A DNA stretch of 64,000 bases from Patescibacteria group bacterium (GTDB lineage: Bacteria; Patescibacteriota; Microgenomatia; UBA8517). The stretch lies in assembly GCA_036381415.1 (NCBI GenBank), contig DASVCV010000001.1:69053-133052 (forward strand), read 5' to 3'. The position numbers were made by a program, and so were the translations under genes. The notes below the pieces were generated by a model. It did no database searches, was not told the origin of the DNA, and was given only the letters and a program-made list of their open reading frames with translations. The stretch's first letter is position 1; each line of letters opens with the position of its first letter. Of the stretch, positions 7,689 through 61,246 are shown one piece after another.

Positions 7689-8732
7689 CTACTTCAACCC
7701 ACTTGTTACTTTTATTTTTGCAAGAAGTTTTGGATCTTCCAATACCTTTCCACACCCTCTAACTACTGATGTGAGTGGGTCTGGTGCAATCCAGACAGGC
7801 ATTTTAGTAATGTCTGCAACCAATTTATCAATTCCTTCTATTAAAGATCCTCCTCCAGTTAGAACTATTCCTTTTTCCATGATGTCTGAGACTAACTCAG
7901 GAGGAGCTTCTTCAAGAGCTCCTTTAATGTTTGTAACAATTTCAGTTAATGTTGGAGAAAGAGCTTCTCTTACTTCATCACTAGAAAGCTTAATAGATTT
8001 TGGAAGACCAGTTTCTAAGTCCCTTCCTCTAATAACTGAGAATTTTTCTTTTCCGATACTAGCTGATCCTATGGTCATCTTTACTGTTTCTGCAGTTGGC
8101 TGGCCTAAAAGAAGTGAATATTTAAGCTTTACATAATTAATTACTGCTTCATCCATTTCATCTCCAGCAATTCTTACTGATCTTCCAATTACCACTCCTC
8201 CTAATGAAATTAAGGCTATTTCACTTGTTCCTCCACCAATATCAACAACAAATACTCCACCTGGATCATCAATAGGAAGACCAATGCCAATGGCTGCTGC
8301 CATTGGTTCTTCTATTAAGAATGCCTGACGGGCTCCTGCAGATAGTGCTGCGTCAGCTACAGCACGGCGTTCTACTTCTGTTACTCCTGATGGAATTCCA
8401 ATTACAACTCTGGGACGAGGTACTTTAGGAATTACTGTTCCTGATTCATGAACTCTTTTAATGTAGTGATCAAGCATGGCTTGGGTTGCATCAAAATCAG
8501 ATATCACTCCATCTTTTAAAGGACGGATTGCTTCAACAAGCTGTGGAGTTCTTCCTACCATTCTTTTGGCAGAGGTTCCAATGGCTAACACTTCTTTTGT
8601 TTTTTTCTGACGGGCTACAACAGATGGCTCTCTAATTACTATTCCTTTTTCTTTCACCCAAACAAGAGTGTTGGCAGTTCCCAAGTCAATTCCTACATCA
8701 TGGCTGAACAAACCTAAAATACGGTTAAACAT
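7689..8732 (-). CDS. mreB: rod shape-determining protein MreB
   Basis: Actin-fold motifs GIDLGTANTLV and DIGGGTSEIA; ~347 aa. Confidence 0.9.
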   Translation of the reverse strand: MFNRILGLFSHDVGIDLGTANTLVWVKEKGIVIREPSVVARQKKTKEVLAIGTSAKRMVGRTPQLVEAIRPLKDGVISDFDATQAMLDHYIKRVHESGTVIPKVPRPRVVIGIPSGVTEVERRAVADAALSAGARQAFLIEEPMAAAIGIGLPIDDPGGVFVVDIGGGTSEIALISLGGVVIGRSVRIAGDEMDEAVINYVKLKYSLLLGQPTAETVKMTIGSASIGKEKFSVIRGRDLETGLPKSIKLSSDEVREALSPTLTEIVTNIKGALEEAPPELVSDIMEKGIVLTGGGSLIEGIDKLVADITKMPVWIAPDPLTSVVRGCGKVLEDPKLLAKIKVTSGLK

Positions 8733-12391: not shown

Positions 12392-12608
12392 GTCCTTTTC
12401 CTTTAAACTTTTTAATACACTTTGCACAGAGCTTCATTTTTGTCCATGTTCCATCTACCAAGACAGTTGCACTTTGCAGGTTTGGTTTAAAGGTTCTTAG
12501 GGTCATTGGAGCTCTTTTCTTCCAACGTTTACCAGCCACACCTCTATGATGAACTTGAGTGCGGCCTGCTACTATTTTCTTTCCACAGCTTTCGCAAATG
12601 TATGCCAT
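12348..12608 (-). CDS. rpmB: 50S ribosomal protein L28
   Basis: L28-like core (CESCGKK..HHRGVAGKRWKKRAPMTLRTFKPNLQ...KMKLCAKC). I used the internal ATG at 12606..12608 (MAYICE) because the 107-aa ORF-track start would give an atypically long L28. It overlaps fmt convergently by ~40 nt. Confidence 0.55.
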   Translation of the reverse strand: MAYICESCGKKIVAGRTQVHHRGVAGKRWKKRAPMTLRTFKPNLQSATVLVDGTWTKMKLCAKCIKKFKGKGLTRSSQASSLGIHA

Positions 12609-12643
12609 GTCTGGTATTATATAGAAAATACGCTTTTTTTTCA

Positions 12644-13306
12644 ATGTTAAGTTCAATATTTGCCGATCCAACTCGTATTATAATTACAATTGTTTCTTTA
12701 ATTGCAGCAGTGACTGTACATGAATTTGCGCATGCATTTATGGCTAACTATTTGGGTGATCCTACTCCCAGACTCCAAGGTAGGCTTACTCTTAATCCTT
12801 TAGCACACCTTGATCCTTTAGGAAGCCTAGTATTTATAATCACATCCTTTTTCCAGTTTCCTTTTGGTTGGGGAAAACCAGTCCAATTTGATCCATTTAA
12901 TCTGCAAAACCCCAAAAGAGACGCAGCTTTAATCTCAGTTGCAGGGCCTATTTCTAACATTATTTTTGCTAGCACTCTTTCTTTAATACTACGATTTACT
13001 TTCGACCCCTTTTCTCCTTATTCACAAGTTTTTGTTCTAATACGTGCCCTAATCGAACTAAATGTTGTACTTGCTGTATTTAATCTAGTTCCAATTCATC
13101 CACTAGATGGTGGCAAAATTTTAGTAGGACTTCTTCCTACTGGCGAGGCCAGAGCTGTTGATAGATTCTTAAGCCAATATGGCCTTTTTGTACTTTTAAT
13201 TTTAATCTTTCCTCTTTTTGGAGGAGTTCCACTAATTTCAATTATTATCTCTCCAGTTGTTCAATTTCTTCTTAGTGTTTTTATTCCTGGAGCTAGGTTT
13301 ATTTAG
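12644..13306 (+). CDS. site-2 protease family zinc metalloprotease (peptidase M50)
   Basis: HEFAHAF (HExxH) inside a TM helix and a downstream LDGG motif. The start is set at MLSSIF (12644) to avoid overlap with rpmB. Confidence 0.6.
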   Translation: MLSSIFADPTRIIITIVSLIAAVTVHEFAHAFMANYLGDPTPRLQGRLTLNPLAHLDPLGSLVFIITSFFQFPFGWGKPVQFDPFNLQNPKRDAALISVAGPISNIIFASTLSLILRFTFDPFSPYSQVFVLIRALIELNVVLAVFNLVPIHPLDGGKILVGLLPTGEARAVDRFLSQYGLFVLLILIFPLFGGVPLISIIISPVVQFLLSVFIPGARFI

Positions 13307-32131: not shown

Positions 32132-32883
32132 TGAAAGCTAAAATATCTGAACCATTTTTAACTGCCTACAATAAAGTTAAAAATCTTCAAAAGTGTGACA
32201 GATACTTAGGGGCATTTATTTTTGGTTCTGTTGTTCGTGGAGAACAAGATAAAAATAGTGATTTAGACGTTATTGTTCTTGTTAACCAGGATAATGACTG
32301 TAAGGAAATAAACCATCCAATTATAAACGGTATTAAGCTAGATATTACATTCCGTTCACTTAAACAGATTAAAGAAGATAATGAAAATACTGCTAAGAAA
32401 GGTGAGAGAATCCCTATTATTTCTGAATCAATAATTGTATTTGATAAAAAGGGAGATTTAAATAAACTTAAAAATGCGTTTAAAAAAGCAAAGCCAAAAA
32501 AGGTAATGAAGAAAGATTTTCAGTTTATTCATTTCATGCTTTATCATTCTGATAATAAAGCAAAAAGAAATCTCGAAGATGATAAACCAAGTGCTCTTCT
32601 TGCAATGAGTATCAATTTAAATGACATATTAAAGTTTCACTATCAGATTAATGGAAAATGGTGGGTCAGCAACAAAAGATTACTTCCAGATTTAGGAGAT
32701 TGGGATCCTAAGCTTGCAAAACTTGTTGAAAAATTTGTTTCAACATCTGTGGTTTCTAAGAAGTATATACTTTGGAGCAAAATATTAGATCATGTTGCAA
32801 AACCAATTGGAGGAAGAAAAGAAATATCTGAAATAAACTGCAGCTGTAAAGTTTGCAAGAAGGATTTGGCTAACCTTATCTAA
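32131..32883 (+). CDS. nucleotidyltransferase-domain protein (ANT/KNTase-like)
   Basis: Minimal NTase motif GSVVRGEQDKNSDLDVIVLV (GS...DxD). Confidence 0.55.
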   Translation: MKAKISEPFLTAYNKVKNLQKCDRYLGAFIFGSVVRGEQDKNSDLDVIVLVNQDNDCKEINHPIINGIKLDITFRSLKQIKEDNENTAKKGERIPIISESIIVFDKKGDLNKLKNAFKKAKPKKVMKKDFQFIHFMLYHSDNKAKRNLEDDKPSALLAMSINLNDILKFHYQINGKWWVSNKRLLPDLGDWDPKLAKLVEKFVSTSVVSKKYILWSKILDHVAKPIGGRKEISEINCSCKVCKKDLANLI

Positions 32884-33520
32884 TGTGCAGGTGATCATTC
32901 AGATATCTTAATTCCCAATGCTTTCTGTCTGGAACATATTCCAGTAAGGTAATGCTAGTATTTGCAACTGATATGCTTCTAAAGATTTGAGAAAAAACTT
33001 TATCATCATAATCTTCTCCTAATAAGGCAAGAATTACAAAGCATCTTATAAATAATCCATGAGTAACTACTAGGATATTTTGATTATTGTGGTGGCTAAT
33101 TAAATGATCTTTAAAAGAAGCTGCTCTTTTTATCACGTCTCTTATAGATTCCCCTTTTCCTTCAAACTTCCAATCCAAGTCTGAACCAAATTTTTCAACT
33201 TCTTCAATATACTTTTTTTGAATATCACTATTCATATTTGCTCCATATAAAGAAGGGTTTTGCTCTTTTTCGTGAATACCCTCGAATGTTTCTAGTTCTT
33301 TACCTATTTTTTTAGAAACTATTTGAGCAGTTTTCCTTGCTCTATCCCATTTACTAGAAAGTACGACATCTATTTTTTCTTTTCCCATCCTTTGAGCTAA
33401 AGCATTTGCTTGTTTAATTCCTTCCAGGCCCAAGGGTGAGTCAGGAGATTGTCTTTTGTCTCCTTCATGATCAGCGCTTTTCCCGTGCCTTACTAAATAA
33501 ACTTCCATGTTTTCTATCAT
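32876..33520 (-). CDS. histidine phosphatase (phosphoglycerate-mutase-like) family
   Basis: RHG catalytic motif (YLVRHGKS). A paralog lies at 44807..45460. Confidence 0.7.
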   Translation of the reverse strand: MIENMEVYLVRHGKSADHEGDKRQSPDSPLGLEGIKQANALAQRMGKEKIDVVLSSKWDRARKTAQIVSKKIGKELETFEGIHEKEQNPSLYGANMNSDIQKKYIEEVEKFGSDLDWKFEGKGESIRDVIKRAASFKDHLISHHNNQNILVVTHGLFIRCFVILALLGEDYDDKVFSQIFRSISVANTSITLLEYVPDRKHWELRYLNDHLHIR

Positions 33521-39481: not shown

Positions 39482-40480
39482 TTATCTCAGTTTCTTAACT
39501 TCTTCTTCCAATTTTGTTAAATTATTTTTGTACCAACGGACAATATTAAAATCTTCGCGGATCATTTGTTCTTTAACATCAACTTTATTTACATACAATC
39601 TAATCAATGAATGTATGTTGGTAATAAGAAAATAGTAATAGGCTCTGAAAATCTTTGATGCTGAATTATCTTTAAAACTCGATTTTAAATATGGTTGGAT
39701 TGATGTGAGAATATTCGCTATCTCAGAGACTTCGAGGTTTACCCTTTCAGGATCAGGTTTAAATAGTGTAAATGTAATTGTTTTCATCAGGTCGACTTCT
39801 ACGAAACCATAGTCAGATTTTTCCCAATCAACAATCCAGAAGTTATTATTTTTATCTCTAATAATGTTTTGCTTTAAAAAATCCCCATGAAGAATTTGTC
39901 CTTTTGTTTGAAAATTTAATATTTCCGATCTATTATTCTCCACTTCTGTTTTTAAGAACTCTAAATATTCTAAATCTCTTGGAGCAGAGGGGAATTGGCT
40001 GCTTTTGATTGCGGTTTCAAGCTGGTTTACATTTCTCATAAAAAGCCAATACCTGTCCTCAAAGGACACTGTTCGTTCTTTGCTTATTTTTTTAAGCTCA
40101 GTATTGGTTTGCGAATATAGTGGGAAAAATTCTGGATTATTGTCACGCATTTGCACTTCTGCTTCGGTACGCAAATCTACTCCATCTATATATCTTGAAA
40201 CGGTAAATATACTACCTTGAAATTCAGTTAGATATTCGTTGTCTTTATTTCTTATTAGCTGTGGTATTTGAATTGTTGTGTTGGCCAAATATTGAGTTGA
40301 TTTTTCCACATCGTTTTTTGCCCTGCCTATTTGAGACTGATAATATTTTTTTACAAAGAATATTCCTTGGGTTGTTTCAACTATCGAAAACAAGGATGAT
40401 GGATCATTAAATTTGGAAAAAATCGGCACAAAGGGTTTGACTTCAACCACATCTCCAATAGAATATCTTTCTTTAATCAT
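39482..40480 (-). CDS. APH/choline-kinase-family phosphotransferase
   Basis: Catalytic loop HGDFLKQNII and IVDWEKSDYG (Brenner motif plus DxE). Confidence 0.6.
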   Translation of the reverse strand: MIKERYSIGDVVEVKPFVPIFSKFNDPSSLFSIVETTQGIFFVKKYYQSQIGRAKNDVEKSTQYLANTTIQIPQLIRNKDNEYLTEFQGSIFTVSRYIDGVDLRTEAEVQMRDNNPEFFPLYSQTNTELKKISKERTVSFEDRYWLFMRNVNQLETAIKSSQFPSAPRDLEYLEFLKTEVENNRSEILNFQTKGQILHGDFLKQNIIRDKNNNFWIVDWEKSDYGFVEVDLMKTITFTLFKPDPERVNLEVSEIANILTSIQPYLKSSFKDNSASKIFRAYYYFLITNIHSLIRLYVNKVDVKEQMIREDFNIVRWYKNNLTKLEEEVKKLR

Positions 40481-40482
40481 AA

Positions 40483-41421
40483 TTATATTTCCTTTGCTCT
40501 TTGTTCGGCACTTAAAAGCGCGCCTGGAATGTTAATTTTCTTTTTATTTAATGCAAGGTCTAGGTCTCCTATACAAATAAAATCTTCAACACTACAGTTA
40601 ACCAACTTTGGCCACCTTCCTTCAAAACCTATAAAAACACCTACATATGCTCCATGAGGTGCCTTTATCTGATATTGACTGTCCGTGGAGATGATTTTCT
40701 CAACTAAATTATTTTCATTTAATTTTATTTCTTCTATTTGCCAACAGTTATCAATAATTTGAATGGTTCCTTTTTTAACATAAGACTCTACATCTCTTAC
40801 AAAATCAGGGTTTGCGTGATCGGCAAACTTATTTTTAACAAAAATTGTTATTGGCCCACGAGGAATTTGTGTATATTTTTCCTCTATGTGCTTAGCAACT
40901 CTTGCGGCTTTAAGTAATGTTTTATCCCCACTACCAATAAGAATTATTTCGTGGTTAGAGAAATCGATTTTCTTTAGATCTTCTGCTGAAAAGCTAGATA
41001 TGTTAAATTCCTGGGCGGGCAATCTTCTTATGGCATCAATTTGTTTAAGTCTTGCGCCCGTGGCTAAAACTACATTTTCTGCTTTATATACTTCTCCACT
41101 TTCAGTTGCTAGCTGATATATGTTTTCAGTTTTAGTTATTTGCTTTATTTCGGAATATTGGACTACTCCGTTAAATCCTTTTTGAAAATAATCTGCAATT
41201 CCAGAACCTAGGTGTTTTCCGTCAACTAAAAAGTCCCATTTGGTTTTCTCGTCGGCTTCATGGTTCCTAACAAATAGGCCGTAAGTAGACAGTTCAGAAC
41301 ACAACTCGTTCCCTTTTTCAAATAGAATAATGTTTGTCTTGTGACTTTTGACTAATTCCTGATAGAAAACGATTCCAGCAGGACCACCTCCAACAATGGC
41401 ATATTCGTATTCTTTTTTCAT
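40483..41421 (-). CDS. FAD-dependent pyridine-nucleotide-disulfide-type oxidoreductase
   Basis: N-terminal Rossmann motif AIVGGGPAG and a second GSGD motif; ~312 aa, thioredoxin-reductase-like. Confidence 0.55.
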   Translation of the reverse strand: MKKEYEYAIVGGGPAGIVFYQELVKSHKTNIILFEKGNELCSELSTYGLFVRNHEADEKTKWDFLVDGKHLGSGIADYFQKGFNGVVQYSEIKQITKTENIYQLATESGEVYKAENVVLATGARLKQIDAIRRLPAQEFNISSFSAEDLKKIDFSNHEIILIGSGDKTLLKAARVAKHIEEKYTQIPRGPITIFVKNKFADHANPDFVRDVESYVKKGTIQIIDNCWQIEEIKLNENNLVEKIISTDSQYQIKAPHGAYVGVFIGFEGRWPKLVNCSVEDFICIGDLDLALNKKKINIPGALLSAEQRAKEI

Positions 41422-42377
41422 CTCGAGCTAAGTGCAAGCAGGTGTTGTTCTATTGAAGCCACAAGTGCTTGAGCGTTATATCCTCCTTCCAGGACAGAAA
41501 TGACTGGTATATTAGCAAAGGTGTCTGTTAATTTTTTGGTCATCTCAAAGTAAGCTTTCTCTTCAAGTGAAAATCCACGCATTGGGTCTCTTTTGTGCGT
41601 ATCGAATCCCGCTGAAACCAAAACAATATCAGGAGAGAATGTTTGTTGTATCTTTTCTACCTGACTGGAGAATTTTTTAAGATATTCAGATTGTGTAGAA
41701 GATCGCGGTACTTGAATGAGGCTCTGCCTGTTCTTAATCTCGGGTTTTTTTGGTTTTCCAATGATAGGAAAGTCTATTGTTGATATATCAAAAAAATAAA
41801 TTGAGTCTATTTTCTTAACAACAGAGAATGTGCCATTTCCAAAATGGGTATCCCAATCTATAACCAGCACCTTCTTTTCTGGGTGGAGATTTAGAAAGAA
41901 TTTACTGGCAATCGCAACATTATTGAAAATACAGAACCCGGCCGCTTCCCTGCGAGAAGCATGGTGTCCCGGTGGTCGGATAGCACAAAAAGCATAGTCA
42001 AGCTTATTCTCGGTTATATATGTAATAGCGGCACATGCGGTAGAAGCGGCCAAATAGGCGGCTTCAAACGTTCCACTATCAATGTATGTATCTTTTCTGT
42101 CTAAATACCAGTTTCGTTTTTTAACTTTTCTAGAAATACGCTTAATTTTTTCAATATATTTGGAATCGTGTACAAGTTCTACACACCCAGCTATTAATTC
42201 TGATTGAGGAACGAATTTTAAATTCTGTAGATCTGGATTTTGTTTTAGATGTTCTTCCAAAGATGCTAATCTTTTTCCAGATTCGGGATGGGAAAAATCT
42301 CTACATTCGTGTTGAACGGCGGTGGCAACATAGAAGAGACCAACTCGGTTATTTTTTTCTACTGAAGATCTTTCCAT
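41418..42377 (-). CDS. histone-deacetylase-family (acetylpolyamine/acetoin-type) amidohydrolase
   Basis: HHASRREAAGFCIFNNVAIA and IDWDTHFGNGT metal-site motifs. Confidence 0.7.
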   Translation of the reverse strand: MERSSVEKNNRVGLFYVATAVQHECRDFSHPESGKRLASLEEHLKQNPDLQNLKFVPQSELIAGCVELVHDSKYIEKIKRISRKVKKRNWYLDRKDTYIDSGTFEAAYLAASTACAAITYITENKLDYAFCAIRPPGHHASRREAAGFCIFNNVAIASKFFLNLHPEKKVLVIDWDTHFGNGTFSVVKKIDSIYFFDISTIDFPIIGKPKKPEIKNRQSLIQVPRSSTQSEYLKKFSSQVEKIQQTFSPDIVLVSAGFDTHKRDPMRGFSLEEKAYFEMTKKLTDTFANIPVISVLEGGYNAQALVASIEQHLLALSSR

Positions 42378-43308: not shown

Positions 43309-43709
43309 AAATCAAGATACTTCTTGAGGAACTAGATAAGCTTGGTATTCCAAAGGACAAAATGGCTATCACTTCCTCTGGGCCTTTAGGGATAAGGAAT
43401 TTGCGTGAAATCAATGACTTGGACATAATTGTACTTCCAGAAGTTTGGAGTGATCTTGTCAAAAAATATGATGTAACAAAGGAGGACAACTTTGAATCAA
43501 TTTATATTGGCAACGTACAAGTTTTGGGCGAAGGTTCTTGGTTTACTGATCCGAAGCTTGGAAGTGTAGAAGAAGATATTAAAAACGCCGATGTGATTAA
43601 TGGATACAGATACGTAAAATTAGACAAAATATTAAAAATAAAAAGACTTAAAGATAGAGAGAAAGATATTAAAGATGTAAAAATAATTGAAGAGTATATG
43701 AAAAAGTGA
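43305..43709 (+). CDS. putative nucleotidyltransferase-fold protein
   Basis: SSGPLGIRNLREINDLDIIV resembles a GS...DxD NTase motif. The start is set at MKIKIL. Confidence 0.3.
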   Translation: MKIKILLEELDKLGIPKDKMAITSSGPLGIRNLREINDLDIIVLPEVWSDLVKKYDVTKEDNFESIYIGNVQVLGEGSWFTDPKLGSVEEDIKNADVINGYRYVKLDKILKIKRLKDREKDIKDVKIIEEYMKK

Positions 43710-43788
43710 AGAAGGTCTCCCTTCCTTCCCAAACTATCTAGCTCTACTTGGTGGATAAAGCCAGAACTTGTTGTACAGCAAGATGGGC

Positions 43789-43815
43789 TATGGAGCTATT
43801 TCTCTCCAGATAACT
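43789..43815. repeat. 27-bp direct repeat copy A (tatggagctatttctctccagataact)
   Basis: Exact match to 47936..47962. Read on the minus strand it encodes ..VIWREIAP*, the same C-terminus as the gene at 47935..49650. Confidence 0.8.
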
Positions 43816-43892
43816 GGTTTCTCCAGAGCGCTAAATTTAAATTTTGTCTAGTGCAGCTTGTGTCAGGCTGATATAATGCTTGTTGAATCTAA

Positions 43893-44813
43893 ATGCCAGG
43901 AATAGAACATTTTTCCACAGTTAATACTCCCTTGGATCAATATAGAGAATCTATTGAGTTGGAATTAGTGAAAAGAGTTGAAGTTCCATTCACGAAGGGA
44001 GAAATTATTTATGCACAGACTGAGTCAGGTGTGAGTGTGGTGGTTAAAAAACCTCTGCGCAAAGAGCAAGCAGAGCACGAATGGGTAGGATTAAACAAGG
44101 CACATTCAACAGGAATTTTAGTACCATTGCCGATTGCACTTATAAATTACAGCCAAGAACAGTTGGCTATTGTTTCTGCTCTAGTTGACGGAAATAACCT
44201 ATATTATTTCCCTAACCCCAAAATTAAATCTGAGATTGGTAGGCAAGTCAGGATAATGCATGACCTAGCAGAAGTTGACGGAAGAACTTGGGAATCAAGC
44301 GGACGAAAAACTTTTGAGTATTACGACAAATATAAATTTAATTGGTCTAGAGGGAAAATCGAAGAACTTAGCATTGATAGCGAGACATCTTTATTATTGA
44401 CTTCTCTTGCAATAAATATGGAGGTTTTTTGCAGAGAGTCCCAACCCACCTTTAATCACAACGATTTGCATGACGGTCAGATTATTGTAGATAAAAACAA
44501 CACTCCTGTGATTATAGATTTCGGCAACTGGAATGAAGAAACGTGGCTCAATGACCTGGGTTACTACTTATTTCATTTAATAAGAACTGATAGAAATAAT
44601 GATGACTTTGGAAATTTTTTAGATGGCTACACTGGAGGTAAAAAATTTTCTGATGTTGAGAAATCCAACTTAGCATTCTACTTGTTATTTATATCATCAA
44701 GGGCTCTAGCCTACTTTTACAGAAACAATAGTCCATACCTTGCAATAGCTAAAGATACACACACGAAAGTATTAGCTTACTTAGCTGATGAAGTATTATG
44801 GAAATCTTATTGA
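43893..44813 (+). CDS. APH/protein-kinase-like phosphotransferase
   Basis: Catalytic loop HNDLHDGQII and IIDFGNW (DFG-like). Confidence 0.55.
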   Translation: MPGIEHFSTVNTPLDQYRESIELELVKRVEVPFTKGEIIYAQTESGVSVVVKKPLRKEQAEHEWVGLNKAHSTGILVPLPIALINYSQEQLAIVSALVDGNNLYYFPNPKIKSEIGRQVRIMHDLAEVDGRTWESSGRKTFEYYDKYKFNWSRGKIEELSIDSETSLLLTSLAINMEVFCRESQPTFNHNDLHDGQIIVDKNNTPVIIDFGNWNEETWLNDLGYYLFHLIRTDRNNDDFGNFLDGYTGGKKFSDVEKSNLAFYLLFISSRALAYFYRNNSPYLAIAKDTHTKVLAYLADEVLWKSY

Positions 44814-45460
44814 TTCGACTTTTTTTCTAAGTACTTAAGGTGAGAGTAGTTATTTATATAGTTAATTTGCCAAGTTTGCCATTGGCTGCTGTGGATTAAA
44901 AGCGAGAGACCTGTATTGTTGATTGCTAGATTGTTGATAGCTCTAAACATACTTTCGTGTGAATAGTTCCTGCCTAACAAAACATTGCTTAATAGACACC
45001 TTATAAAAAGATCGTGAGATACAACTAAAACGCGTTTACCTTGGTAGTTTTTTGTTAAAAACAGCAACAACTTAGAAGTACGGTCTAGAACTTCGCGGGT
45101 TGATTCTTCTTTTCCTTCAAATTTCCAGTCCAAATTTCCAAAGTTTTTACGGTATTCATTAGCATATTTCATAGAAATTTCGCTGTTTCTTAAAGCGCCA
45201 TACATATCAGGAAGTTGTTTTCTCTCGTGGATATAATCCAAAATCTCAAAGTCAATTTGAGCTTCTTTAGAAATAATTTCTGCGGTTTTGCGAGATCGCT
45301 CCCAATCGCTCGAAAAAATTTTATCTATTTTGTAAAATTTCACCTGTTTACCAAGAGCTTCGGCTTGTTTCTTACCGATATCGCTAAGCTTTGAATTTGG
45401 CGTTTGCCAACGATCTTTTACGGCTTCACCCTCGGCGTGTCTAGCAAGAAATAAGAACAT
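44807..45460 (-). CDS. histidine phosphatase family protein
   Basis: LARHAEGEA N-terminus. It is a clear paralog of the gene at 32876..33520 (SDWERSRKTAEIISKE vs SKWDRARKTAQIVSKK; VLVVSHDLFIRC vs ILVVTHGLFIRC). Confidence 0.65.
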   Translation of the reverse strand: MFLFLARHAEGEAVKDRWQTPNSKLSDIGKKQAEALGKQVKFYKIDKIFSSDWERSRKTAEIISKEAQIDFEILDYIHERKQLPDMYGALRNSEISMKYANEYRKNFGNLDWKFEGKEESTREVLDRTSKLLLFLTKNYQGKRVLVVSHDLFIRCLLSNVLLGRNYSHESMFRAINNLAINNTGLSLLIHSSQWQTWQINYINNYSHLKYLEKKSNQ

Positions 45461-45473
45461 CTAGAGAATTATA

Positions 45474-46244
45474 CTATAAAGTCCCTATCGCGATAACCCC
45501 AATTACACTTTCGTCTATTTTGTCGAAATCCAGTAATTGGTTTAATCCATCATCTATAAATCCTCCAATAGAACAGGCACCTAACCCAAGCTCTTGTGCA
45601 ATTAGATTTATGTTTTGAGCATAATGCCCATATTCTGTATAAATGTGTCGCAGGCCTCGATCTCCGTACTTACTTTCTGTTCTATCAAAGATAGCAGATA
45701 CAATGATTAAAAGAGACGCTTTGCGTATCCATGGCTGGTTAAATTGCTTTATGGTTTTGATGAAAAATGACTTATCGTAAATTTTTTCCAGTGAATGGCT
45801 TTTAACGTGATAATGATATATTCCTGGTTTTATATTTTCAGATCGAAAAACAATAGGATAAATTTCCAAAGGATATCTTGCTCCTGCCGATGGGTAAAAC
45901 CTTCTCTCACCGGCTTTTTTGAATAATAGTTGTTTTAGACCTCCGGAAAAATATAACAGATTGGAAAGGTCACTAATCTTAATATATTTTTTGGTAAATT
46001 TTCTTGTAGAGACTCTTTTGACCAATGCATCGTTTAGACTCCATTTTGCGGCAACTGGAACAGGTAGCAAAGCTTGGTTCATTCTCGGATAAGCTTTGTA
46101 ATAAATCTTTTTCCACTGTTCAGGCCAAGTACTATATGGAGTTTTTTTGTAATTACTGAAATCCTTTATTTTTATACTATTGTTGAACTTTCTCGACAAA
46201 GAAAGATCCAATTTCTCTAAAATACTTACAGTTTTATTTTTCAT
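45474..46244 (-). CDS. SagB/McbC-type FMN-dependent dehydrogenase (azoline oxidase)
   Basis: RRFYPSAGARYPLEIY...PGIYHYH, the hallmark of the SagB-type dehydrogenase domain, and a nitroreductase-fold C-terminus (GHYAQNINLIAQELGLGACSIGGF). Confidence 0.7.
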   Translation of the reverse strand: MKNKTVSILEKLDLSLSRKFNNSIKIKDFSNYKKTPYSTWPEQWKKIYYKAYPRMNQALLPVPVAAKWSLNDALVKRVSTRKFTKKYIKISDLSNLLYFSGGLKQLLFKKAGERRFYPSAGARYPLEIYPIVFRSENIKPGIYHYHVKSHSLEKIYDKSFFIKTIKQFNQPWIRKASLLIIVSAIFDRTESKYGDRGLRHIYTEYGHYAQNINLIAQELGLGACSIGGFIDDGLNQLLDFDKIDESVIGVIAIGTL

Positions 46245-47560
46245 AAGAATGGATGTGGGTAAGCGTTTAGTTTAGCGTTGCGTTTGTATCCTAACTTAGA
46301 TGGCACGTCATATAGCCTTTTCCCTCCCCATAGTGGAAACTTTTCGTCTAAGTATAAGGGTTGCATACCTGGAACTAAAACTTTTACAGCCTTGAAAGGA
46401 ATATTTTTAAAATACATTGGAGTTATATCTTTATAATAAATTGTATAGTTCCTTTTTCTTAAAATATTCTTTAACTGTGTAATTTGTGCCTGCACTGACA
46501 CTCTCTTATTTTTAGGTCCAATATTTTTGATTTTCAGTTCTTTAATTAAAAAGTTAATTTTAGAAATTGATCTAGGATGGTACCAAAGCAACCCTCTGTT
46601 TTTTATACTTGAATCCTCAAACAGTTTCACTTTCGAAATACTCACAGGGTTTTTAATGTATGCTTCTCTAATCCAACTCCTAGTATGAAAAGCTTCATTA
46701 ATAGATCCGACAATAGCCTTTTCCACATCTAAATTAGCTTTAAGGCCGACAGAGACAGCCTTACTTAACCCTGAACGGTCAATTAATATAGAAGCAACAA
46801 CAGGTATATCTAAATCTGTACTAATATCTACTGAATATAACTCCATGTTATACCTATCTGTAATTTCAACTAATGAACTTATAATTTTATTTTTAGAGGA
46901 TCTCAAATCATATTTTTTTGGCTTCAGTTTGTTCAAATAGTAGATCATAAAAGAATCTCTCTCAATAATTTCGTAAATTCCTGCTAAAATTGCTGAATCC
47001 AAATTAGAATGACCTGCAGCACCTGTGCTTATTGAAGGGTGTATTATTGGTTCGCTTTGAATTGGATCGTATGAAAGATAAATTGATTGGCAAGGGACAA
47101 GGTATTCTTTGCTGTTAGTTAATGATTTAACTTTTGTCCATCTAAACCTAGACTTTTCATCAATTAGAAATTTTTTATACTCGTTAATATGTAGTTGTTT
47201 CTCAGAAAAATACACAAACAACCTTGGGTTTATTGCACTAGTTTTAACATCTGAATATGTACCTGTAAAATCAACATCTTTTTGGAAAAAAGCAAAATTA
47301 CTATATCTCTCCAAAGCCTCAACTAAAGCTTTGAGTACAGCCATCTTTTGTGAGAAAAAAGAAACGCCAGAAGAATTAGAACTAAAGTGCAGACCATCAT
47401 GTGTTAGGTTCTTATCGCTTAACGTTGCAGAGTAAAACCAAAATTTAGGCTCATCATAATGTTGCCTAGTTCTTTCAAAAGACTCAACTAGATTGATTTG
47501 ACCTAGAGCAGAATCAAGCCCTTTGATTATGTTAGAAGTACTTTTTTTCATAAAACACAA
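46241..47560 (-). CDS. YcaO-domain cyclodehydratase (standalone)
   Basis: YcaO N-motif SGVSFFSQKMAVLKALVEALERYS and ATP-binding region ISTGAAGHSNLDSAILAGIYEIIERDSF. It overlaps the SagB gene by 4 nt. Confidence 0.75.
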   Translation of the reverse strand: MCFMKKSTSNIIKGLDSALGQINLVESFERTRQHYDEPKFWFYSATLSDKNLTHDGLHFSSNSSGVSFFSQKMAVLKALVEALERYSNFAFFQKDVDFTGTYSDVKTSAINPRLFVYFSEKQLHINEYKKFLIDEKSRFRWTKVKSLTNSKEYLVPCQSIYLSYDPIQSEPIIHPSISTGAAGHSNLDSAILAGIYEIIERDSFMIYYLNKLKPKKYDLRSSKNKIISSLVEITDRYNMELYSVDISTDLDIPVVASILIDRSGLSKAVSVGLKANLDVEKAIVGSINEAFHTRSWIREAYIKNPVSISKVKLFEDSSIKNRGLLWYHPRSISKINFLIKELKIKNIGPKNKRVSVQAQITQLKNILRKRNYTIYYKDITPMYFKNIPFKAVKVLVPGMQPLYLDEKFPLWGGKRLYDVPSKLGYKRNAKLNAYPHPFL

Positions 47561-47605
47561 TCAAAACTACAAAGACACTATATATCGATTCAAAGAGATA
47601 ATGCC

Positions 47606-47803
47606 TTATTTGTTCGTTTTTCTATTTTTACTACCACCATCGCATCCGCAGCTCGCGCATGATGAGCAGCTACCGCAGCTATTTGACCCACAAGCACAAT
47701 TGGAACAATTTCCACAGCTTTGTGCGCAATCGTCCTCATTGCCTGCTACAGGAATATTTTGGTGTGGTATGGCTTCAGTTAAGCTTCTTTCTTCTCTACT
47801 CAT
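47606..47803 (-). CDS. RiPP precursor peptide with Cys/Ser/Gly-rich core
   Basis: 65 aa. The leader is MSREERSLTEAIPHQNIPVAGNEDD and the core is CAQSCGNCSNCACGSNSCGSCSSCASCGCDGG. A strong SD (AAGGGGGTGA) sits 5 nt upstream of the ATG, and the stop is 45 nt upstream of ycaO. Confidence 0.6.
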   Translation of the reverse strand: MSREERSLTEAIPHQNIPVAGNEDDCAQSCGNCSNCACGSNSCGSCSSCASCGCDGGSKNRKTNK

Positions 47804-47840
47804 TCAACTCACCCCCTTTAGTACAAGACATGTGGATATC

Positions 47841-47869
47841 AATATATTCTTTGTTATAGGGTCTGTCAA
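47841..47869 (-). promoter_or_regulatory. sigma70-like promoter TTGACA-N17-TATATT for the precursor-ycaO-sagB operon
   Basis: Minus strand: TTGACA (47864..47869), a 17-nt spacer, then TATATT (47841..47846), ~37 nt upstream of the precursor ATG. Confidence 0.5.
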
Positions 47870-47934
47870 GAGTAGACAACTTTCAAAACTTGATTTATGG
47901 AGTAAGAGCCTAAGTAATGTTGGTTTATTTTACG

Positions 47935-49650
47935 TTATGGAGCTATTTCTCTCCAGATAACTCTGGTTCTTGTCAGGTCTCTTGGATATGAGAAAAGAAA
48001 GTCAGGAGCATATTGTATAAACTCTGCTGGTGTTGTTGTATTTAAGGCACCTAAATCTCTTTGAAGATTAATGCCAGATAACCCTGCTAAAGAGCCTCTA
48101 ATAGAAAGCTGACTGGCTCCTAGACCTGTTGAAATTACTCCATCTGCCAGAAACAATCCTTCAGCAGCAGGAGTTCCGGGATTGGAAGTAAGTGTAGGAT
48201 CAAAAATTATATTTCCTCCACTTCCTCCTGCATCTTTTCCTGCTATTGCCATGAAGAATCCATCTCCAACTTTTGAAACTCTAATGCTTGATGCAACTGT
48301 AAGATTTCCTCCTTTAACTAGGATTATGTATTTTCTAGAAGAATTAACATTAACATTTCCAGTTAAAGTTAGATCTCCATTTCTTCTAAACCAGACAAAT
48401 CCATGAGATGGGGTTCCGTTTGCTTGAAGGTATGCACCGCTAATTGAATCAGTTGGAATATCATTTACCTGAATATCTGATGGAATAAGTCCTTCAAAGT
48501 AAGCATAGTTATATGTTTTTCCCTGATATGTAGTATTGGTTAACCACTTCTTGGATGATACTGTTCCATTGGTTGCACCTGCTGAAAAGTCTGCAGTTGC
48601 TCCTCCATACGTAACTACTCCTGGAAAAGTTCCTGTTCCATCTAAGTTAAATGAAGGAATGCAGCCTGGAAGAGTACACGTGAGGGGAATTAAAGAAGTT
48701 AAATTTCCATTTGTAATTACATCTCCATCTTTTACCTGCCACCATGCTTTAGATGGGGCTACATTTACCGCTGTTTGTGCACTACACCTTATAGAGCCTC
48801 CCATTACTACTGAAGCACTCATAACTGTATTGCCTATTCCAACTCCTCTTACTGCTGTTCTAAATGGAGAAGAAGTTATAGGACTGGTTGCTGTTGCAAT
48901 TGCCGCATTTCCAGTATTGTAATCAATCTCAGAAATAGACCCGTTTGTAGTAGTTAGTGTTGGGGTAACACTAGTTTCACCTCCAACAAAGGCTTGTACT
49001 GATGGAGGAAGAGAGATTGTACATGTTGGTGGAGGAGGACAAAGACACGTACCTCCCTGATTTGTAAGACCAGGGGCGCAGCCACTACAAGTTCCGTAAG
49101 TAGAACAGGTTGCATCACAGTAATTTCCCTCACCATAGTTACATCTTGGATATCCAGTTGCTCCTGTATCCCAAGCACAGCCTGGAACATACCCACCACC
49201 ACAGCCAACATAGCTTTTAACACAAGACCCATTACCACAACAAATGTTGCTTTGAGCAGGATCACAATTAGATGCATTACAGCCTCCCCCACCTCCACCA
49301 CCAGGAGGAGTAGGTGTGGGACTAGAGCTTGCTATCCAGCATTTACCAGGGTTTGTTGTTGTACTACCTCCACAGTTACCGCTTCCATATTGTCCTGGAG
49401 AACAGCTAAAAGAAAAGGCAGTATAATCACACCATCCTCCCGACCCTGTTTCAAAATTACAGCTCACGTAACGGCAATTACTTGAAGGACCGTTGCATTG
49501 GTATATACCGCCTGGTATTGATGAGCAGACGTAATCATCTGTGCAAACATAGCAGGATTGAGCTTTCACTGGTTTGGGTAACAGCAATAAAACAAGTGAT
49601 AAAATTCCGAACAAAATGGAACCAAAAAGAAGATTTTTGTATATATGCAT
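47935..49650 (-). CDS. secreted Cys/Gly-rich protein (571 aa)
   Basis: N-terminal signal peptide (LFGSILFGILSLVLLLLPKPVKA) and an N-terminal half very rich in Cys/Gly/Ser/Thr with poly-Gly and PTPTPP tracts. The C-terminal half has beta-rich repeats. Confidence 0.5.
   Translation of the reverse strand: MHIYKNLLFGSILFGILSLVLLLLPKPVKAQSCYVCTDDYVCSSIPGGIYQCNGPSSNCRYVSCNFETGSGGWCDYTAFSFSCSPGQYGSGNCGGSTTTNPGKCWIASSSPTPTPPGGGGGGGCNASNCDPAQSNICCGNGSCVKSYVGCGGGYVPGCAWDTGATGYPRCNYGEGNYCDATCSTYGTCSGCAPGLTNQGGTCLCPPPPTCTISLPPSVQAFVGGETSVTPTLTTTNGSISEIDYNTGNAAIATATSPITSSPFRTAVRGVGIGNTVMSASVVMGGSIRCSAQTAVNVAPSKAWWQVKDGDVITNGNLTSLIPLTCTLPGCIPSFNLDGTGTFPGVVTYGGATADFSAGATNGTVSSKKWLTNTTYQGKTYNYAYFEGLIPSDIQVNDIPTDSISGAYLQANGTPSHGFVWFRRNGDLTLTGNVNVNSSRKYIILVKGGNLTVASSIRVSKVGDGFFMAIAGKDAGGSGGNIIFDPTLTSNPGTPAAEGLFLADGVISTGLGASQLSIRGSLAGLSGINLQRDLGALNTTTPAEFIQYAPDFLFSYPRDLTRTRVIWREIAP
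47936..47962. repeat. 27-bp direct repeat copy B
   Basis: Exact match to 43789..43815. It forms the last 8 codons plus stop of the 47935..49650 gene. Confidence 0.8.
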
Positions 49651-53087: not shown

Positions 53088-54404
53088 ATGCAATATGATC
53101 TAAATGACCTTTTGATTAAGCCTTCTTCAAACGAAGAAGAGAAATATTGTAAAAAGTACAATATCCATATTAGAAGATTAGAAAACGGCGCTACTATTTT
53201 AGGGATCCCCTGTAAAAAAGACTTTACTTCTTGGGCTCAAATTAAATATGAATTTTTAGAGGGAGCTTATGGCAATAAACCAGGCAGTGTGCATCTTTTG
53301 GAACACTTTATAAACAAAAAAACAAAGCGTACTGCTAACGAAAACTCACTTAATATCGGTGCTTATACGAATTTAACTGAAATCGGAGAAGAAGTATCAG
53401 GCATTGCAAACCCGGCCGCCCTCGATTATGGAGTTTGGACAATTTTAGATCAGATTAGAAAGTCTCTCGAGTCTCCTTTAATAAATGTTGATAATATTGA
53501 AAAAACTCTAGAAACAGAGCGAGATGTCATAAAAGCAGAAATTCAAAAACGCGATAGCGACCAAAACTTTCAGATTAGCAAGCACTTTAACCATGTAGTT
53601 TTTTCTAAGGAAAATCCTCTACACGATGTTTCTTTAATAACTGGAACGGAAAAAGATTTGAATAAATTATCATCCGATATGTTAAAGGACATTGAAAGAA
53701 GGATTTTGATTGCTAAAAATCTTTTGATTAGCTTCTATACCGAAGGAGATCTTTCAATAGCAGATGTTATCGAAAAAGAGTTGGAAAATTCTTTTTCAGA
53801 CTTCCCAACAGATGAAAAAGAAGGATTAAATAGAAGATTGTTGGAAAAAATTAACCCCAACCTTTTGCCTGGCAGTACTTATTCCCAGGATTCAGGTATT
53901 AAAAATGGAATCATTACGACAGAATTTGTGTGGACCCTAAATCATAAATTTCCCTCTGATAAACATTTAGGTTTACTGCTCCTTTATAAAATAATCGCAA
54001 CTGAACTGTTTTTATATTCTAGAAAAATGGGTTGGGGTTATTTTACGGATACTATTTTAACCAGACCAACTAACAATTTAGTACTTTTAAGGTTAAGGAT
54101 TGATGCTAGGAAGGATAACCAAAAAGAATTATTAAAGGGTATAAAAGAAGTGCTGCTTTCTATAAAAAAGGTCAGCCAGTCGGTTGTTGAAAACGAAAAG
54201 AAAAGACAGAAAGCTATTCCAATAAATGCGGTTGCTAGACTCTCTTGGATAGTAAATGGAATTAAAGACTATGGTGCAATGATAGATGCAGATAAAGTTA
54301 GAGATAATAAATTAGGTGTAACACCGCAAATTTTAAATGAATTAGTGGATGAACTAATATCTATTCCACCCACAATAATTGTTACCGGAGACATAAATTA
54401 TTAA
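53088..54404 (+). CDS. M16-family (pitrilysin-like) zinc peptidase
   Basis: Inverted zinc motif HLLEH in the context GSVHLLEHFINKKTKRT (HxxEH...). Confidence 0.5.
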   Translation: MQYDLNDLLIKPSSNEEEKYCKKYNIHIRRLENGATILGIPCKKDFTSWAQIKYEFLEGAYGNKPGSVHLLEHFINKKTKRTANENSLNIGAYTNLTEIGEEVSGIANPAALDYGVWTILDQIRKSLESPLINVDNIEKTLETERDVIKAEIQKRDSDQNFQISKHFNHVVFSKENPLHDVSLITGTEKDLNKLSSDMLKDIERRILIAKNLLISFYTEGDLSIADVIEKELENSFSDFPTDEKEGLNRRLLEKINPNLLPGSTYSQDSGIKNGIITTEFVWTLNHKFPSDKHLGLLLLYKIIATELFLYSRKMGWGYFTDTILTRPTNNLVLLRLRIDARKDNQKELLKGIKEVLLSIKKVSQSVVENEKKRQKAIPINAVARLSWIVNGIKDYGAMIDADKVRDNKLGVTPQILNELVDELISIPPTIIVTGDINY

Positions 54405-59119: not shown

Positions 59120-61246
59120 TCATTTTTTTGCCCTTCTTCCCCATCTTTCTTGTGAGACTCTAATTACTTTTTCTTTGTTTTGGTTTTTTGATTTAGGTAG
59201 AGGGAGGGTGGTTGCAAGGAAAGGCCTTTGGGAGTGCCCATCTATAATGAGCTTGGTAGCTATTTGATAGTTTTGGAGGTTTATTAAATTTTCTTCTGTA
59301 AAGACTTCTCCAAATTCTTTATTTAAAACATGTGCATCTTCAGCACCAGATGAAAAAGATATTAATGTGCCTGCATTTCCTAATATTGCCTTTTGAACAT
59401 TAGGTGGAATTTGGGCCATATATTGATTGGCAAGCATTAGGTTTAAATGGTATTTTCTTGCTTCTGAAAGGATTTTAATGAAAGAGGTTGTTGCAAAGTT
59501 TTGAAACTCATCTACATATAAATAAAAGTCTTTCCTTTTTTCTTCTTCCATATTTACTCTTCTCATTGCAGCTAGCTGGAACTTAGTAATTAGCATTGCT
59601 CCTAAAAGTTGAGCATTATCCTCACCAATTTTTCCTTGAGACAGATTTGCTATTAAAATCTTTTCTTCATTTATAATTTTTTCCAAATCTACTGAGCTTT
59701 TAGGATGTCCAATAATATTTCTAATGGTTGGTGAGGTCACAAATTGTCCGATTTTATTAAGAATTGGAAAGATTACTTCTTTTTGCAAATTTGGCGGCAA
59801 GTTTTCAAATTCATTAATCCAGAAGTTTTTAAGTACCTGATCCTTAAGGTTACTAACTGTCTTTGTCCTAAAGTCTTTATTTGTAAGAATTAGGGGAACA
59901 TCAAGAAGGGTTGAATTTGGAACTTCTGTTAAGGTTAAAAGTGCATTTCTTAAAACGTACTCTAGTCTTGGTCCCCAGAATTTTCCAAATATTTTACTAA
60001 AGACTGCAATTGTAGCTGACACCACAAACTCAGCTTCATTTTTGTTTGTTACTTCTAATGGATTAATTGAAACAGAAAATTCCTTGTCTGAAGGGTTAAA
60101 GTAAATTACATCATTAATACGCTCTTTTGGAACAAAATTAAGTAAAACTTCTGACAAATCTCCATGGGGATCAATTACTGCCAATCCTCTTCCCTTCTTC
60201 ATGTCATCTATTGCCATATTGGCAATTAATGTTGACTTGCCTGTTCCTGTCTTTCCAATTGCCCAGATATGGCGCATTCTGTCACCATCTTTTATACCAA
60301 ACACTACTTCTTTGTTTTTGAATGTTGTTTTCGCAAAGAAATTAATATTTCTTTTCTCCCCTTCTGAAATATCTTCTGATATTGGTAGATTTGAAGGAGG
60401 CTCAGATAAAACTGATGCTCCCCAGCTTACTCCTTGTGTTTTTATCTTCTCAGATGGCAAGTGCCAAAGAGTAGCCAACTCTTCGATATTTACTATTTGA
60501 TTATCAGACACTTTCCTTTGATTAAAATCTTTCAAAAGTTTTCTTTTTGTTAAAGAAAATGGTCTTTTGACAGTAAAACTATTTCCTTCAGGACGGGTGT
60601 AAACATTAAATGATTGTTCAATTTGGCTTAAGAGATGAGTATTGTTTGATGCAATTCTAACCGAAACTTTAAATCCCGGATTTTTGATTTTTTCTTTGAC
60701 AATGTTGGCATCAGGTCTAGGAATAAAGTTGCCATCTTCCTTTTTTGTTCCATGGCTGGCAAAGTTTTCAGCAAGAACTTGCCAGGAAGTAGAGACTCCC
60801 TCTAAAGCAAACTGGATTATTGCAATATCTTGCGTTTCACCTTTTGAAAGAACTGTTAAAACTGAGGATAATGGATCGACGTCCTTGAAATCTTTAAAAG
60901 TTTTAATTGGGTAGTAGCTTCCATTTTTTAGGACAAGCTTTTCTATTTTAAAGGTTTTATGGGCATCAATTTTCATTCCCTTTTCTATTACTACCAAAGG
61001 ATAAGCTGACTCGAGCTGGCTTTCTATAAAGTTTGTAAGGTCAGGATGGGCTGCTATCTGAAAGGAAATTTCCTGATTTTTTAAAACAATCTCTAGACCG
61101 AGCGGCTTAGGGGATTTTTTAAGCAGCTTATGGAGGCGGCTTGTTTTGTTTATTTCTAGAAGTGAAGCAAAAAAAGTTTGTGCAGATTCAGGTGTTATAT
61201 CTACTTTTCTTGGAAGTTTGAGAGTAAGGCTAATTAATTCATCCAC
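59120..61246 (-). CDS. AAA-like (DUF87/HerA-FtsK-VirB4 superfamily) P-loop ATPase
   Basis: Walker A GKTGTGKST, AVIDPHGDL, and Walker B YVDEFQNF. The 708-aa size is typical of T4SS/conjugation-type or HerA-type ATPases. Confidence 0.45.
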   Translation of the reverse strand: MDELISLTLKLPRKVDITPESAQTFFASLLEINKTSRLHKLLKKSPKPLGLEIVLKNQEISFQIAAHPDLTNFIESQLESAYPLVVIEKGMKIDAHKTFKIEKLVLKNGSYYPIKTFKDFKDVDPLSSVLTVLSKGETQDIAIIQFALEGVSTSWQVLAENFASHGTKKEDGNFIPRPDANIVKEKIKNPGFKVSVRIASNNTHLLSQIEQSFNVYTRPEGNSFTVKRPFSLTKRKLLKDFNQRKVSDNQIVNIEELATLWHLPSEKIKTQGVSWGASVLSEPPSNLPISEDISEGEKRNINFFAKTTFKNKEVVFGIKDGDRMRHIWAIGKTGTGKSTLIANMAIDDMKKGRGLAVIDPHGDLSEVLLNFVPKERINDVIYFNPSDKEFSVSINPLEVTNKNEAEFVVSATIAVFSKIFGKFWGPRLEYVLRNALLTLTEVPNSTLLDVPLILTNKDFRTKTVSNLKDQVLKNFWINEFENLPPNLQKEVIFPILNKIGQFVTSPTIRNIIGHPKSSVDLEKIINEEKILIANLSQGKIGEDNAQLLGAMLITKFQLAAMRRVNMEEEKRKDFYLYVDEFQNFATTSFIKILSEARKYHLNLMLANQYMAQIPPNVQKAILGNAGTLISFSSGAEDAHVLNKEFGEVFTEENLINLQNYQIATKLIIDGHSQRPFLATTLPLPKSKNQNKEKVIRVSQERWGRRAKK

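Follow-up and report, generated by a model that had tools for sequence, protein, structure and literature searches.

Biosynthetic clusters for linear azole-containing peptides (LAPs), also called thiazole/oxazole-modified microcins (TOMMs), have been described in bacteria of the candidate phyla radiation (CPR), where they combine a YcaO, a nitroreductase, a peptidase and a precursor; 110 such clusters were found in 93 further CPR genomes (Sharrar et al. 2020, mBio, PMC7298704). At the level of genomes, such CPR systems have been on record since 2020, but none has ever been characterised. The haloazolisin clusters of halophilic archaea contain a truncated cyclodehydratase with no recognisable leader-binding region, and their product is uncharacterised (Cox et al. 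2015, PMC4603692). The AmiN kinase and the AmiO phosphatase of the amicoumacin cluster form a pair for self-resistance and activation (PMC6156654). In this study, we analysed a stretch of 64,000 nucleotides from a Patescibacteria group bacterium (contig DASVCV010000001.1, positions 69,053 to 133,052), hereafter the window, and within it a 65-codon open reading frame (ORF) situated directly before a ycaO gene. The ORF is quite probably the structural gene of a LAP, and a kinase and a phosphatase encoded close by would belong to the same system. A preliminary description had already read the ORF as a precursor modified by a YcaO and a dehydrogenase, a reading that is supported by the conserved syntenic ORF, by the SagD-type YcaO and by the SagB dehydrogenase, the enzymes both scoring above curated cut-offs.

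The precursor gene and its conservation

The translation of the ORF, MSREERSLTEAIPHQNIPVAGNEDDCAQSCGNCSNCACGSNSCGSCSSCASCGCDGGSKNRKTNK, matches exactly the one quoted earlier. A 32-residue segment of it, CAQSC...CDGG, is composed of 10 Cys, 8 Ser, 6 Gly, 3 Ala, 3 Asn, 1 Gln and 1 Asp; the preliminary description had counted 12 Cys and 8 Ser in 32 residues, and the serine count was confirmed, but the recount gives only 10 cysteines. Against the Cys background of 0.65% in the long ORFs of the window (6,630 residues), the binomial probability of at least 10 Cys per 32 residues is about 7e-15. All ORFs of the window were checked, and neither a second Cys block comparable to this core nor a second copy of the precursor was found. 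The cysteines of the core are spaced 2-5 apart, with five S-C sites among them. No Pfam or NCBIfam family matched the peptide at E <= 0.01, and it hence falls into no curated precursor family, be it heterocycloanthracin/sonorensin, streptolysin S or another.

The ORF was found to be conserved in syntenic ycaO loci. A protein database search returned 16 homologues, with E-values down to 3e-15, on contigs that correspond in size to those of the YcaO orthologues, and in every close locus fetched that reaches far enough upstream, a homologue lies directly before ycaO. Altogether, about 20 distinct homologues were recognised, each of them placed immediately before an orthologous ycaO. In the alignment of 17 sequences, all 10 core cysteines are invariant, and most of the serines and glycines of the core are conserved as well. 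The leader motif R-E-R-x-L-x-D-A-x-P-Q-Q-N is also conserved across the homologues, while both the C-terminal tail and the spacer that precedes the core are free to vary. Two details of the earlier account have to be given up on this basis. The acidic NEDD patch, thought to mark the end of the leader and a possible cleavage region, is not conserved, and only the residue preceding the first Cys is mostly Asp. The KNRKTNK tail, which had been called unusual, is one among many unrelated polar tails (SNRQGK, AENLK, AENRLGK, SNGVKKARG and DGDGDGDGSEDGK) in a variable region.

No other part of the cluster is as well conserved as the core, which has 79-93% identity to its relatives and ranks above the enzymes: the values are 69-77% for SagB, 62-72% for YcaO, 57-68% for the kinase, 56-65% for the phosphatase and 28-60% for the leader. 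The precursor family is narrow, as a profile search of 1.84 billion representatives yielded 11 clusters, none of them characterised. One relative (L083, 244..402) carries a variant with an internal deletion and only 5 Cys, of core CNSDCASSCGCDC, alongside full-length YcaO, SagB, phosphatase and kinase.

A plus-strand ORF of 145 codons (47523..47960) lies opposite the precursor ORF, and it could be argued that this ORF, or nothing at all, is the real feature of the region. It is the longer of the two, and the two frames share their third-codon positions. As wobble variation alone does not discriminate between frames that share these positions, we used the counts of synonymous and non-synonymous differences and the integrity of the ORFs in relatives. 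In the core, the codon differences comprise 68 synonymous and 32 non-synonymous changes in the sense frame, compared with 57 and 45 in the antisense frame; the codon statistics, which the preliminary description had singled out as a possible objection, do not favour the plus-strand ORF. Across four loci, the length of the open antisense stretch falls from 152 to 107, 76 and 58 codons, and an in-frame stop interrupts it within the core of L003. The Ser codons of the sense frame switch between AGY and TCN and yet Ser is retained. The plus-strand ORF also extends over the first part of ycaO and the last part of the adjacent gene for a 571-aa protein, and the Shine-Dalgarno (SD) and promoter-like sites serve the minus-strand ORF. 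We give practically no credence to a plus-strand gene, a reading that is effectively refuted already; judged by the substitution pattern and the synteny, the 65-codon ORF is a real gene. The source assembly evidently lacks a gene call for it, since the protein collection holds an identical kinase and a 436-aa product (P0017) with 100% identity to the window YcaO, both carrying the NCBI name 'Patescibacteria group bacterium', but no identical peptide.

The expression signals of the precursor gene stand out in the window. The arrangement AAAGGGGGTGA-N5-ATG pairs with the anti-SD sequence at -12.1 kcal/mol, which ranks first of 55 when the precursor is compared with the 54 ATG-start ORFs of at least 150 aa (mean -1.6 kcal/mol, standard deviation 3.0); the claim that the ORF has the strongest SD in the window was thereby borne out within this comparison set. 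SD sites of the GGAGGTGA type precede the orthologous precursors too. Most genes of the window show nearly no SD pairing; apart from that of the precursor, just two ORF starts, at 30297 and 32131, pair at -9.5 kcal/mol or more strongly. The promoter-like site of the sigma-70 type matches at 11 of 12 positions and is the best in the 4.4 kb scanned (43700..48100). Pairs resembling TTGACA/TATAAT were found at the equivalent place in six relatives (L001, L003, L006, L016, L019 and L038). Unlike the precursor gene upstream of it, ycaO has no SD of its own, and a terminator or attenuator was looked for between the two genes and none was found. A strong promoter-like site and the best ribosome-binding site on the precursor, with none on ycaO, would fit a substrate that is made in excess over its enzymes.

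The modifying enzymes and the predicted azole chemistry

The preliminary description implied that a ycaO and a dehydrogenase gene would be found next to the precursor. Both are present, and their products exceed the curated cut-offs of TIGR03604 and TIGR03605. The precursor gene lies 54 nt upstream of ycaO, whose product matches PF02624 with 182 bits and TIGR03604, the SagD family, with 251.5 bits (cut-off 219.25). Its family profile aligns only with residues ~352-778 of MusD, TruD and LynD (E 1e-38 to 4e-36). The glutamates of the ExxER motif and the P-H-P-F of the proline-rich C-terminal end are invariant in 37 sequences. The dehydrogenase reaches 147.5 bits with TIGR03605 (cut-off 78.4) and matches PF00881 as well. 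Its sequence matches in the PDB are 3eo7, an uncharacterised nitroreductase and the closest, CyaGox, BmdC and McbC, and the alignment with CyaGox covers only residues 263-463, that is, the catalytic domain. The K192-Y193 pair is invariant in 66/66 homologues. From established family knowledge, we take the conserved motifs of YcaO and SagB, like those of the phosphatase and the kinase described below, to be the functional ones.

The combination of precursor, YcaO and SagB extends well beyond the close relatives of the window. A scan of one genome per species yielded 78 loci, which span many CPR lineages, DPANN archaea and a few haloarchaea, including L065, L067 and L073 from halobacteria, whose YcaO proteins are distant relatives of that of the window (27-31% identity). 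In almost all of the 78 loci, sagB immediately follows ycaO, and before ycaO there is a short ORF rich in Cys whose leader motif is related, typically x-D-A-K-E-F. The cores of these ORFs differ greatly, being built of Cys-Ser-Gly, Cys-Pro-Lys or Cys-Asn-Gly. The most common third gene encodes a genuine M16 peptidase (PF00675 and PF05193), found in 22 loci and mostly directly after sagB, which corresponds to the published organisation of CPR LAP clusters. Two other arrangements were observed. Single proteins of about 720 aa in L074-L082 match both SagB and YcaO, consistent with a fusion, and are usually followed by a predicted Zn protease of the DUF2268 family. L032 (2833..8672) carries two YcaO-SagB pairs in tandem.

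On these grounds, the following pathway can be proposed. The leader would be recognised through the motif L-x-(D/E)-A-x-P-Q-Q-N directly by the stand-alone SagD-type YcaO, without an E1-like partner or RiPP recognition element (RRE; RiPP, ribosomally synthesised and post-translationally modified peptide), a step about which we are less certain. The YcaO would use ATP to convert the 10 Cys into thiazolines by cyclodehydration; some Ser might also become oxazolines, for which the five S-C sites are the most plausible positions. The azolines would then be oxidised to azoles by SagB, a flavoprotein that is translationally coupled to the YcaO and uses flavin mononucleotide (FMN), as is expected from its family. 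The contiguous azole arrays of the preliminary description are a prediction. Given that the cysteines are spaced 2-5 apart, contiguity or fused azole pairs would need cyclisation of Ser at the five S-C sites.

The cysteine pattern could also be read in another way. With its invariant Cys in CxxC and CxC spacing, the peptide resembles metal-binding motifs, its core is conserved above what is usual for RiPP cores, and no RRE partner is present. It could thus be a metallothionein-like metal binder that is unmodified or used differently, or the YcaO could perform a chemistry that does not lead to azolines, with the adjacency of ycaO reflecting another relationship. However, the YcaO scores above the azole-specific SagD cut-off and far under that of the thioamidation model TIGR03266 (74 bits, cut-off 365), and no TfuA-type match was obtained in any family scan. 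Translational coupling moreover ties the YcaO to a SagB azoline dehydrogenase that has the catalytic K-Y pair, and the same trio recurs across the 78 loci with very different Cys-rich cores. We therefore regard a metal binder or another YcaO chemistry as very improbable, and favour the LAP precursor.

Several components of other RiPP systems were searched for. Among 50 window proteins, none was an E1-like (C), CD or Ocin-ThiF (F) partner (TIGR03603, TIGR03882, TIGR03693, ThiF), although a leader-binding partner may sit elsewhere in the genome. Family scans of the same 50 proteins and an inspection of the conserved gene block gave no TfuA and no phospho-lyase of the HopA1-like, OspF-like or LanL type. 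As a leader peptidase, a 438-aa protein with an HLLEH motif (HxxEH), the sole M16-like candidate of the window, was considered (Table 1). It matches the M16 protein located behind sagB in L013 (E 5e-7) and may be a very divergent M16 enzyme. Its score with Peptidase_M16 is below threshold (11.7 bits, E 0.24), and the gene shows no synteny in the closest relatives; we retain it as a weak candidate whose membership in the system is doubtful.

The kinase and the phosphatase

The precursor, ycaO, sagB and phosphatase genes, together with the convergent kinase gene, form a five-gene block that was found in the window and in L001, L003, L006, L008, L010, L015 and L083-L090. The block is kept in all close loci (YcaO identity of at least ~47%) that are long enough to show it, and the outer flanks differ. 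Two more distant loci, L009 and L066, have a homologous kinase at other positions. In this clade, the phosphatase and the kinase take the place that the M16 peptidase occupies after sagB.

The phosphatase matches PF00300 with 102 bits, its nearest solved relative is the phosphoserine phosphatase PspA (4ij5, E 4e-8), and its residues R7, H8, R55, E79 and H149 are invariant. A second histidine-phosphatase paralogue is encoded at 32876..33520. The kinase belongs to PF01636 (35.8 bits, cut-off 23.2), with invariant K52, H189, D191 and D209-F210. A PDB sequence search with the kinase gave nothing useful. Its AlphaFold2 model has a pLDDT (predicted local distance difference test) of 91.8, and the Foldseek neighbours of this model are YtaA/CotI, APH(9)-Ia, macrolide kinases and AmiN (6sum), with template-modelling scores of 0.5-0.63; these are enzymes of the aminoglycoside phosphotransferase (APH) fold. 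The kinase family is tiny: a word-indexed search of 5.8 billion sequences returned 33 homologues, nearly all on contigs that bear a YcaO. The cores linked to the kinase contain no Lys or Arg, and most of them have Ser and acidic residues; those linked to the M16 peptidase are mostly basic or Pro-rich.

In two related loci, the block has decayed. In L101, sagB is reduced to its last 23 codons (7583..7651) and the precursor and ycaO are lost, and the phosphatase and kinase are intact. In L102, ycaO is reduced to its last 42 codons (8357..8482) and the precursor is lost, and sagB, the phosphatase and the kinase are intact. Since immunity genes are expected to persist in this manner, the survival of the pair beyond the biosynthetic genes hints at immunity and would fit it better than tailoring. 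The L102 block has a full-length Mg-chelatase/ComM-like gene on one side and additional Mg_chelatase_C fragments on the other, an arrangement suggestive of an insertion or a rearrangement at that gene.

As the last and least certain step of the pathway, the kinase and the phosphatase would most likely constitute a reversible phospho switch acting on the free Ser hydroxyls of the product, which would provide immunity of the producer and activation of the peptide in the manner of AmiN and AmiO. A tailoring function of the kinase has to be weighed against this. The APH-like CaoK iteratively phosphorylates Ser and Thr of a RiPP precursor, after which a HopA1-like lyase eliminates the phosphate (PMC9486802). 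The window kinase shares a Pfam family (PF01636) with CaoK, Ser is abundant in the cores to which it is linked, and the nearest solved relative of the phosphatase acts on phosphoserine. The kinase could accordingly phosphorylate the core serines as LanK-type APH kinases do, leading to dehydroalanine/thioether or to a phosphorylated product, with the phosphatase proof-reading or trimming. However, the lyases that such a route employs were absent from the scanned proteins and the block, as stated above, and a histidine phosphatase hydrolyses phosphate rather than eliminating it. The intact pair in L101, and likewise in L102, where sagB survives, is also hard to reconcile with pure tailoring enzymes. 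We consider a tailoring kinase unlikely, and return to the LAP system with its switch.

A number of points weigh against this reading of the locus as a whole. The azole chemistry is deduced entirely from homology. No E1-like, Ocin-ThiF or RRE family recurs in the conserved block or in the 78 related loci, and with the partner absent from the scanned proteins, activity without it is not guaranteed. The block is also without a transporter or a leader peptidase. The APH-fold neighbours of the kinase model are generic and say nothing on its substrate. The contrast between kinase-linked and M16-linked cores is suggestive, but it is confounded by phylogeny. L101 and L102 represent two events only and could be recent deletions. 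Finally, neither the kinase nor the phosphatase has a signal peptide, and both are apparently cytoplasmic, so that a scheme in which the peptide is inactive inside and active outside needs an extra assumption.

In its most specific form, the proposal is a minimal RiPP pathway in which a stand-alone YcaO devoid of an RRE binds the leader directly, and in which the polyazole product is under a switch, or phospho-tailoring, by a Ser kinase and a histidine phosphatase. We put this forward tentatively, as an idea that could well turn out to be wrong. If it is true, the phospho-switch or phospho-tailoring would be one that has not been described for any azole peptide, and the near-invariant core would point to one specific conserved target, possibly in the hosts of episymbiotic CPR bacteria.

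Table 1. Positions of the precursor, its signals, the cluster genes and further genes in the window
Feature	Position	Strand	Remarks
Precursor peptide gene	47606..47803	minus	65 aa, 65-codon ORF
Precursor leader	47729..47803	minus	residues 1-25; motif L-x-(D/E)-A-x-P-(Q/H)-Q-N
Precursor Cys/Ser core	47642..47728	minus	residues 26-54
Precursor variable polar tail	47609..47641	minus	residues 55-65
Shine-Dalgarno site GGGGGTGA	47809..47816	minus	5 nt before the precursor ATG
Sigma-70-type promoter-like site	47841..47869	minus	TTGACA-17 nt-TATATT; upstream of the precursor gene
YcaO cyclodehydratase	46241..47551	minus	436 aa; stand-alone; ATG at 47551, start in the ORF list TTG at 47560
SagB-type FMN dehydrogenase	45474..46244	minus	256 aa; start overlaps the ycaO stop by 4 nt
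Histidine-phosphatase-superfamily (branch 1) protein	44807..45460	minus	217 aa; 13 nt downstream of sagB
APH-fold kinase	43893..44813	plus	306 aa; convergent with the phosphatase gene, 3' ends overlap by 7 nt
Protein with HLLEH (HxxEH) motif	53088..54404	plus	438 aa; weak leader-peptidase candidate, 5.3 kb from the cluster
Second APH/CotS-like kinase	39482..40480	minus	
Pyridine-nucleotide-disulphide oxidoreductase	40483..41421	minus	
Histone-deacetylase-family protein	41418..42377	minus	

Further genes surround the cluster. Directly upstream of the precursor gene and on the same strand, 47935..49650 encodes a secreted-looking protein of 571 aa with a signal or transmembrane N-terminus and a Cys/Gly-rich region, which matched no Pfam or NCBIfam family. 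Homologues of it are encoded directly upstream of precursor/ycaO in L015, L086, L092 and L100 and within 8 kb in L011, L013, L038 and L063; the protein could have a connection with the cluster, or it could just be a surface protein that is common in CPR bacteria. Just beyond the other end of the cluster, three tightly packed genes occupy 39482..42377 on the minus strand (last rows of Table 1). Two more distant genes have no apparent link to the cluster: 12506..13306 (plus strand) encodes a 266-aa protein with a weak match, below the cut-off, to the model of the daptide HExxH intramembrane metalloprotease (E 1e-6), and 59120..61246 (minus strand) encodes a VirD4/TraD-like coupling protein.

Significance and comparison with known systems

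The genomes of CPR bacteria are tiny, and a life on other microbes is assumed for these organisms. The relatives of the window carry chromosomes of ~0.8 Mb. For organisms with such genomes and such a way of life, a conserved toxin-like peptide that appears, from its sequence signals, to be strongly expressed is a candidate tool of the CPR lifestyle. The compact YcaO/SagB pair, which seemingly works without the usual leader-binding partner, would be a useful minimal system for installing azoles, and the three to five genes are small enough for direct testing by co-expression. The locus may also be the first example in which an azole peptide is accompanied by a kinase and a phosphatase. We searched the literature for azole-peptide clusters that include both enzymes, and none turned up. 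The gene set of the window is not described in the literature searched.

With the CPR LAP clusters (PMC7298704), the locus shares the CPR host, the short Cys/Ser-rich precursor and the nitroreductase-type dehydrogenase adjoining ycaO, and no C-protein is mentioned there either. It differs in having a histidine phosphatase and an APH-fold kinase and no adjacent peptidase, and in the nearly invariant core of its clade. Neither the replacement of the peptidase by a kinase and a phosphatase nor a near-invariant core turned up in the literature searched.

The microcin B17 system (McbA/McbBCD) resembles the locus in the Gly/Ser/Cys-rich core and in the pairing of a YcaO (McbD) with an FMN dehydrogenase (McbC), both of which are detectable sequence relatives of the window enzymes. 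Both peptides contain S-C and C-S dipeptides, which in McbA become fused oxazole-thiazole pairs. In contrast, the window cluster has no E1-like partner of the McbB type and no immunity or export genes of the McbEFG type, the Cys density of its core is higher (10 Cys in 29 residues), and its YcaO is nearer to the cyanobactin-type enzymes (E 1e-38) than to McbD (2e-5).

LynD, TruD and MusD, with the E-values given above, are the closest solved structures to the window YcaO, and CyaGox, after 3eo7, is among the closest to the dehydrogenase. The former are fusions of ~780 aa, in which an N-terminal half composed of an RRE and an E1-like domain binds the leader, whereas the window YcaO corresponds to residues ~352-778 only. 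In the same way, the N-terminal domains of CyaGox have no counterpart in the dehydrogenase.

The haloazolisins are similar in that a truncated cyclodehydratase is followed by SagB and the product is uncharacterised. Their host is archaeal, however, and their precursors are Ser-rich and highly divergent, as opposed to the Cys-rich and conserved core found here. No kinase/phosphatase pair is reported for them.

With regard to the kinase and the phosphatase, two known modules can be compared. The class V lanthipeptide/thioamitide module (LanK and LanY) has its counterpart in the APH-type kinase, but the HopA1/OspF-type lyase is missing and a hydrolytic histidine phosphatase is found instead. The AmiN/AmiO pair (PMC6156654) serves amicoumacin, a small molecule made by nonribosomal peptide and polyketide synthetases (NRPS-PKS) and not a RiPP, and AmiO is an alkaline phosphatase rather than a member of the histidine-phosphatase superfamily, so that the phosphatase class differs. 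The likeness to this self-resistance system lies in an APH-fold kinase and a phosphatase that are encoded with a biosynthetic cluster, and in the fold of AmiN, which is a structural neighbour of the window kinase. It extends to the occurrence of the genes outside the clusters: stand-alone homologues of the amicoumacin kinase are found in strains that lack its cluster, and the pair of the window type outlives the precursor and ycaO in L101 and L102.

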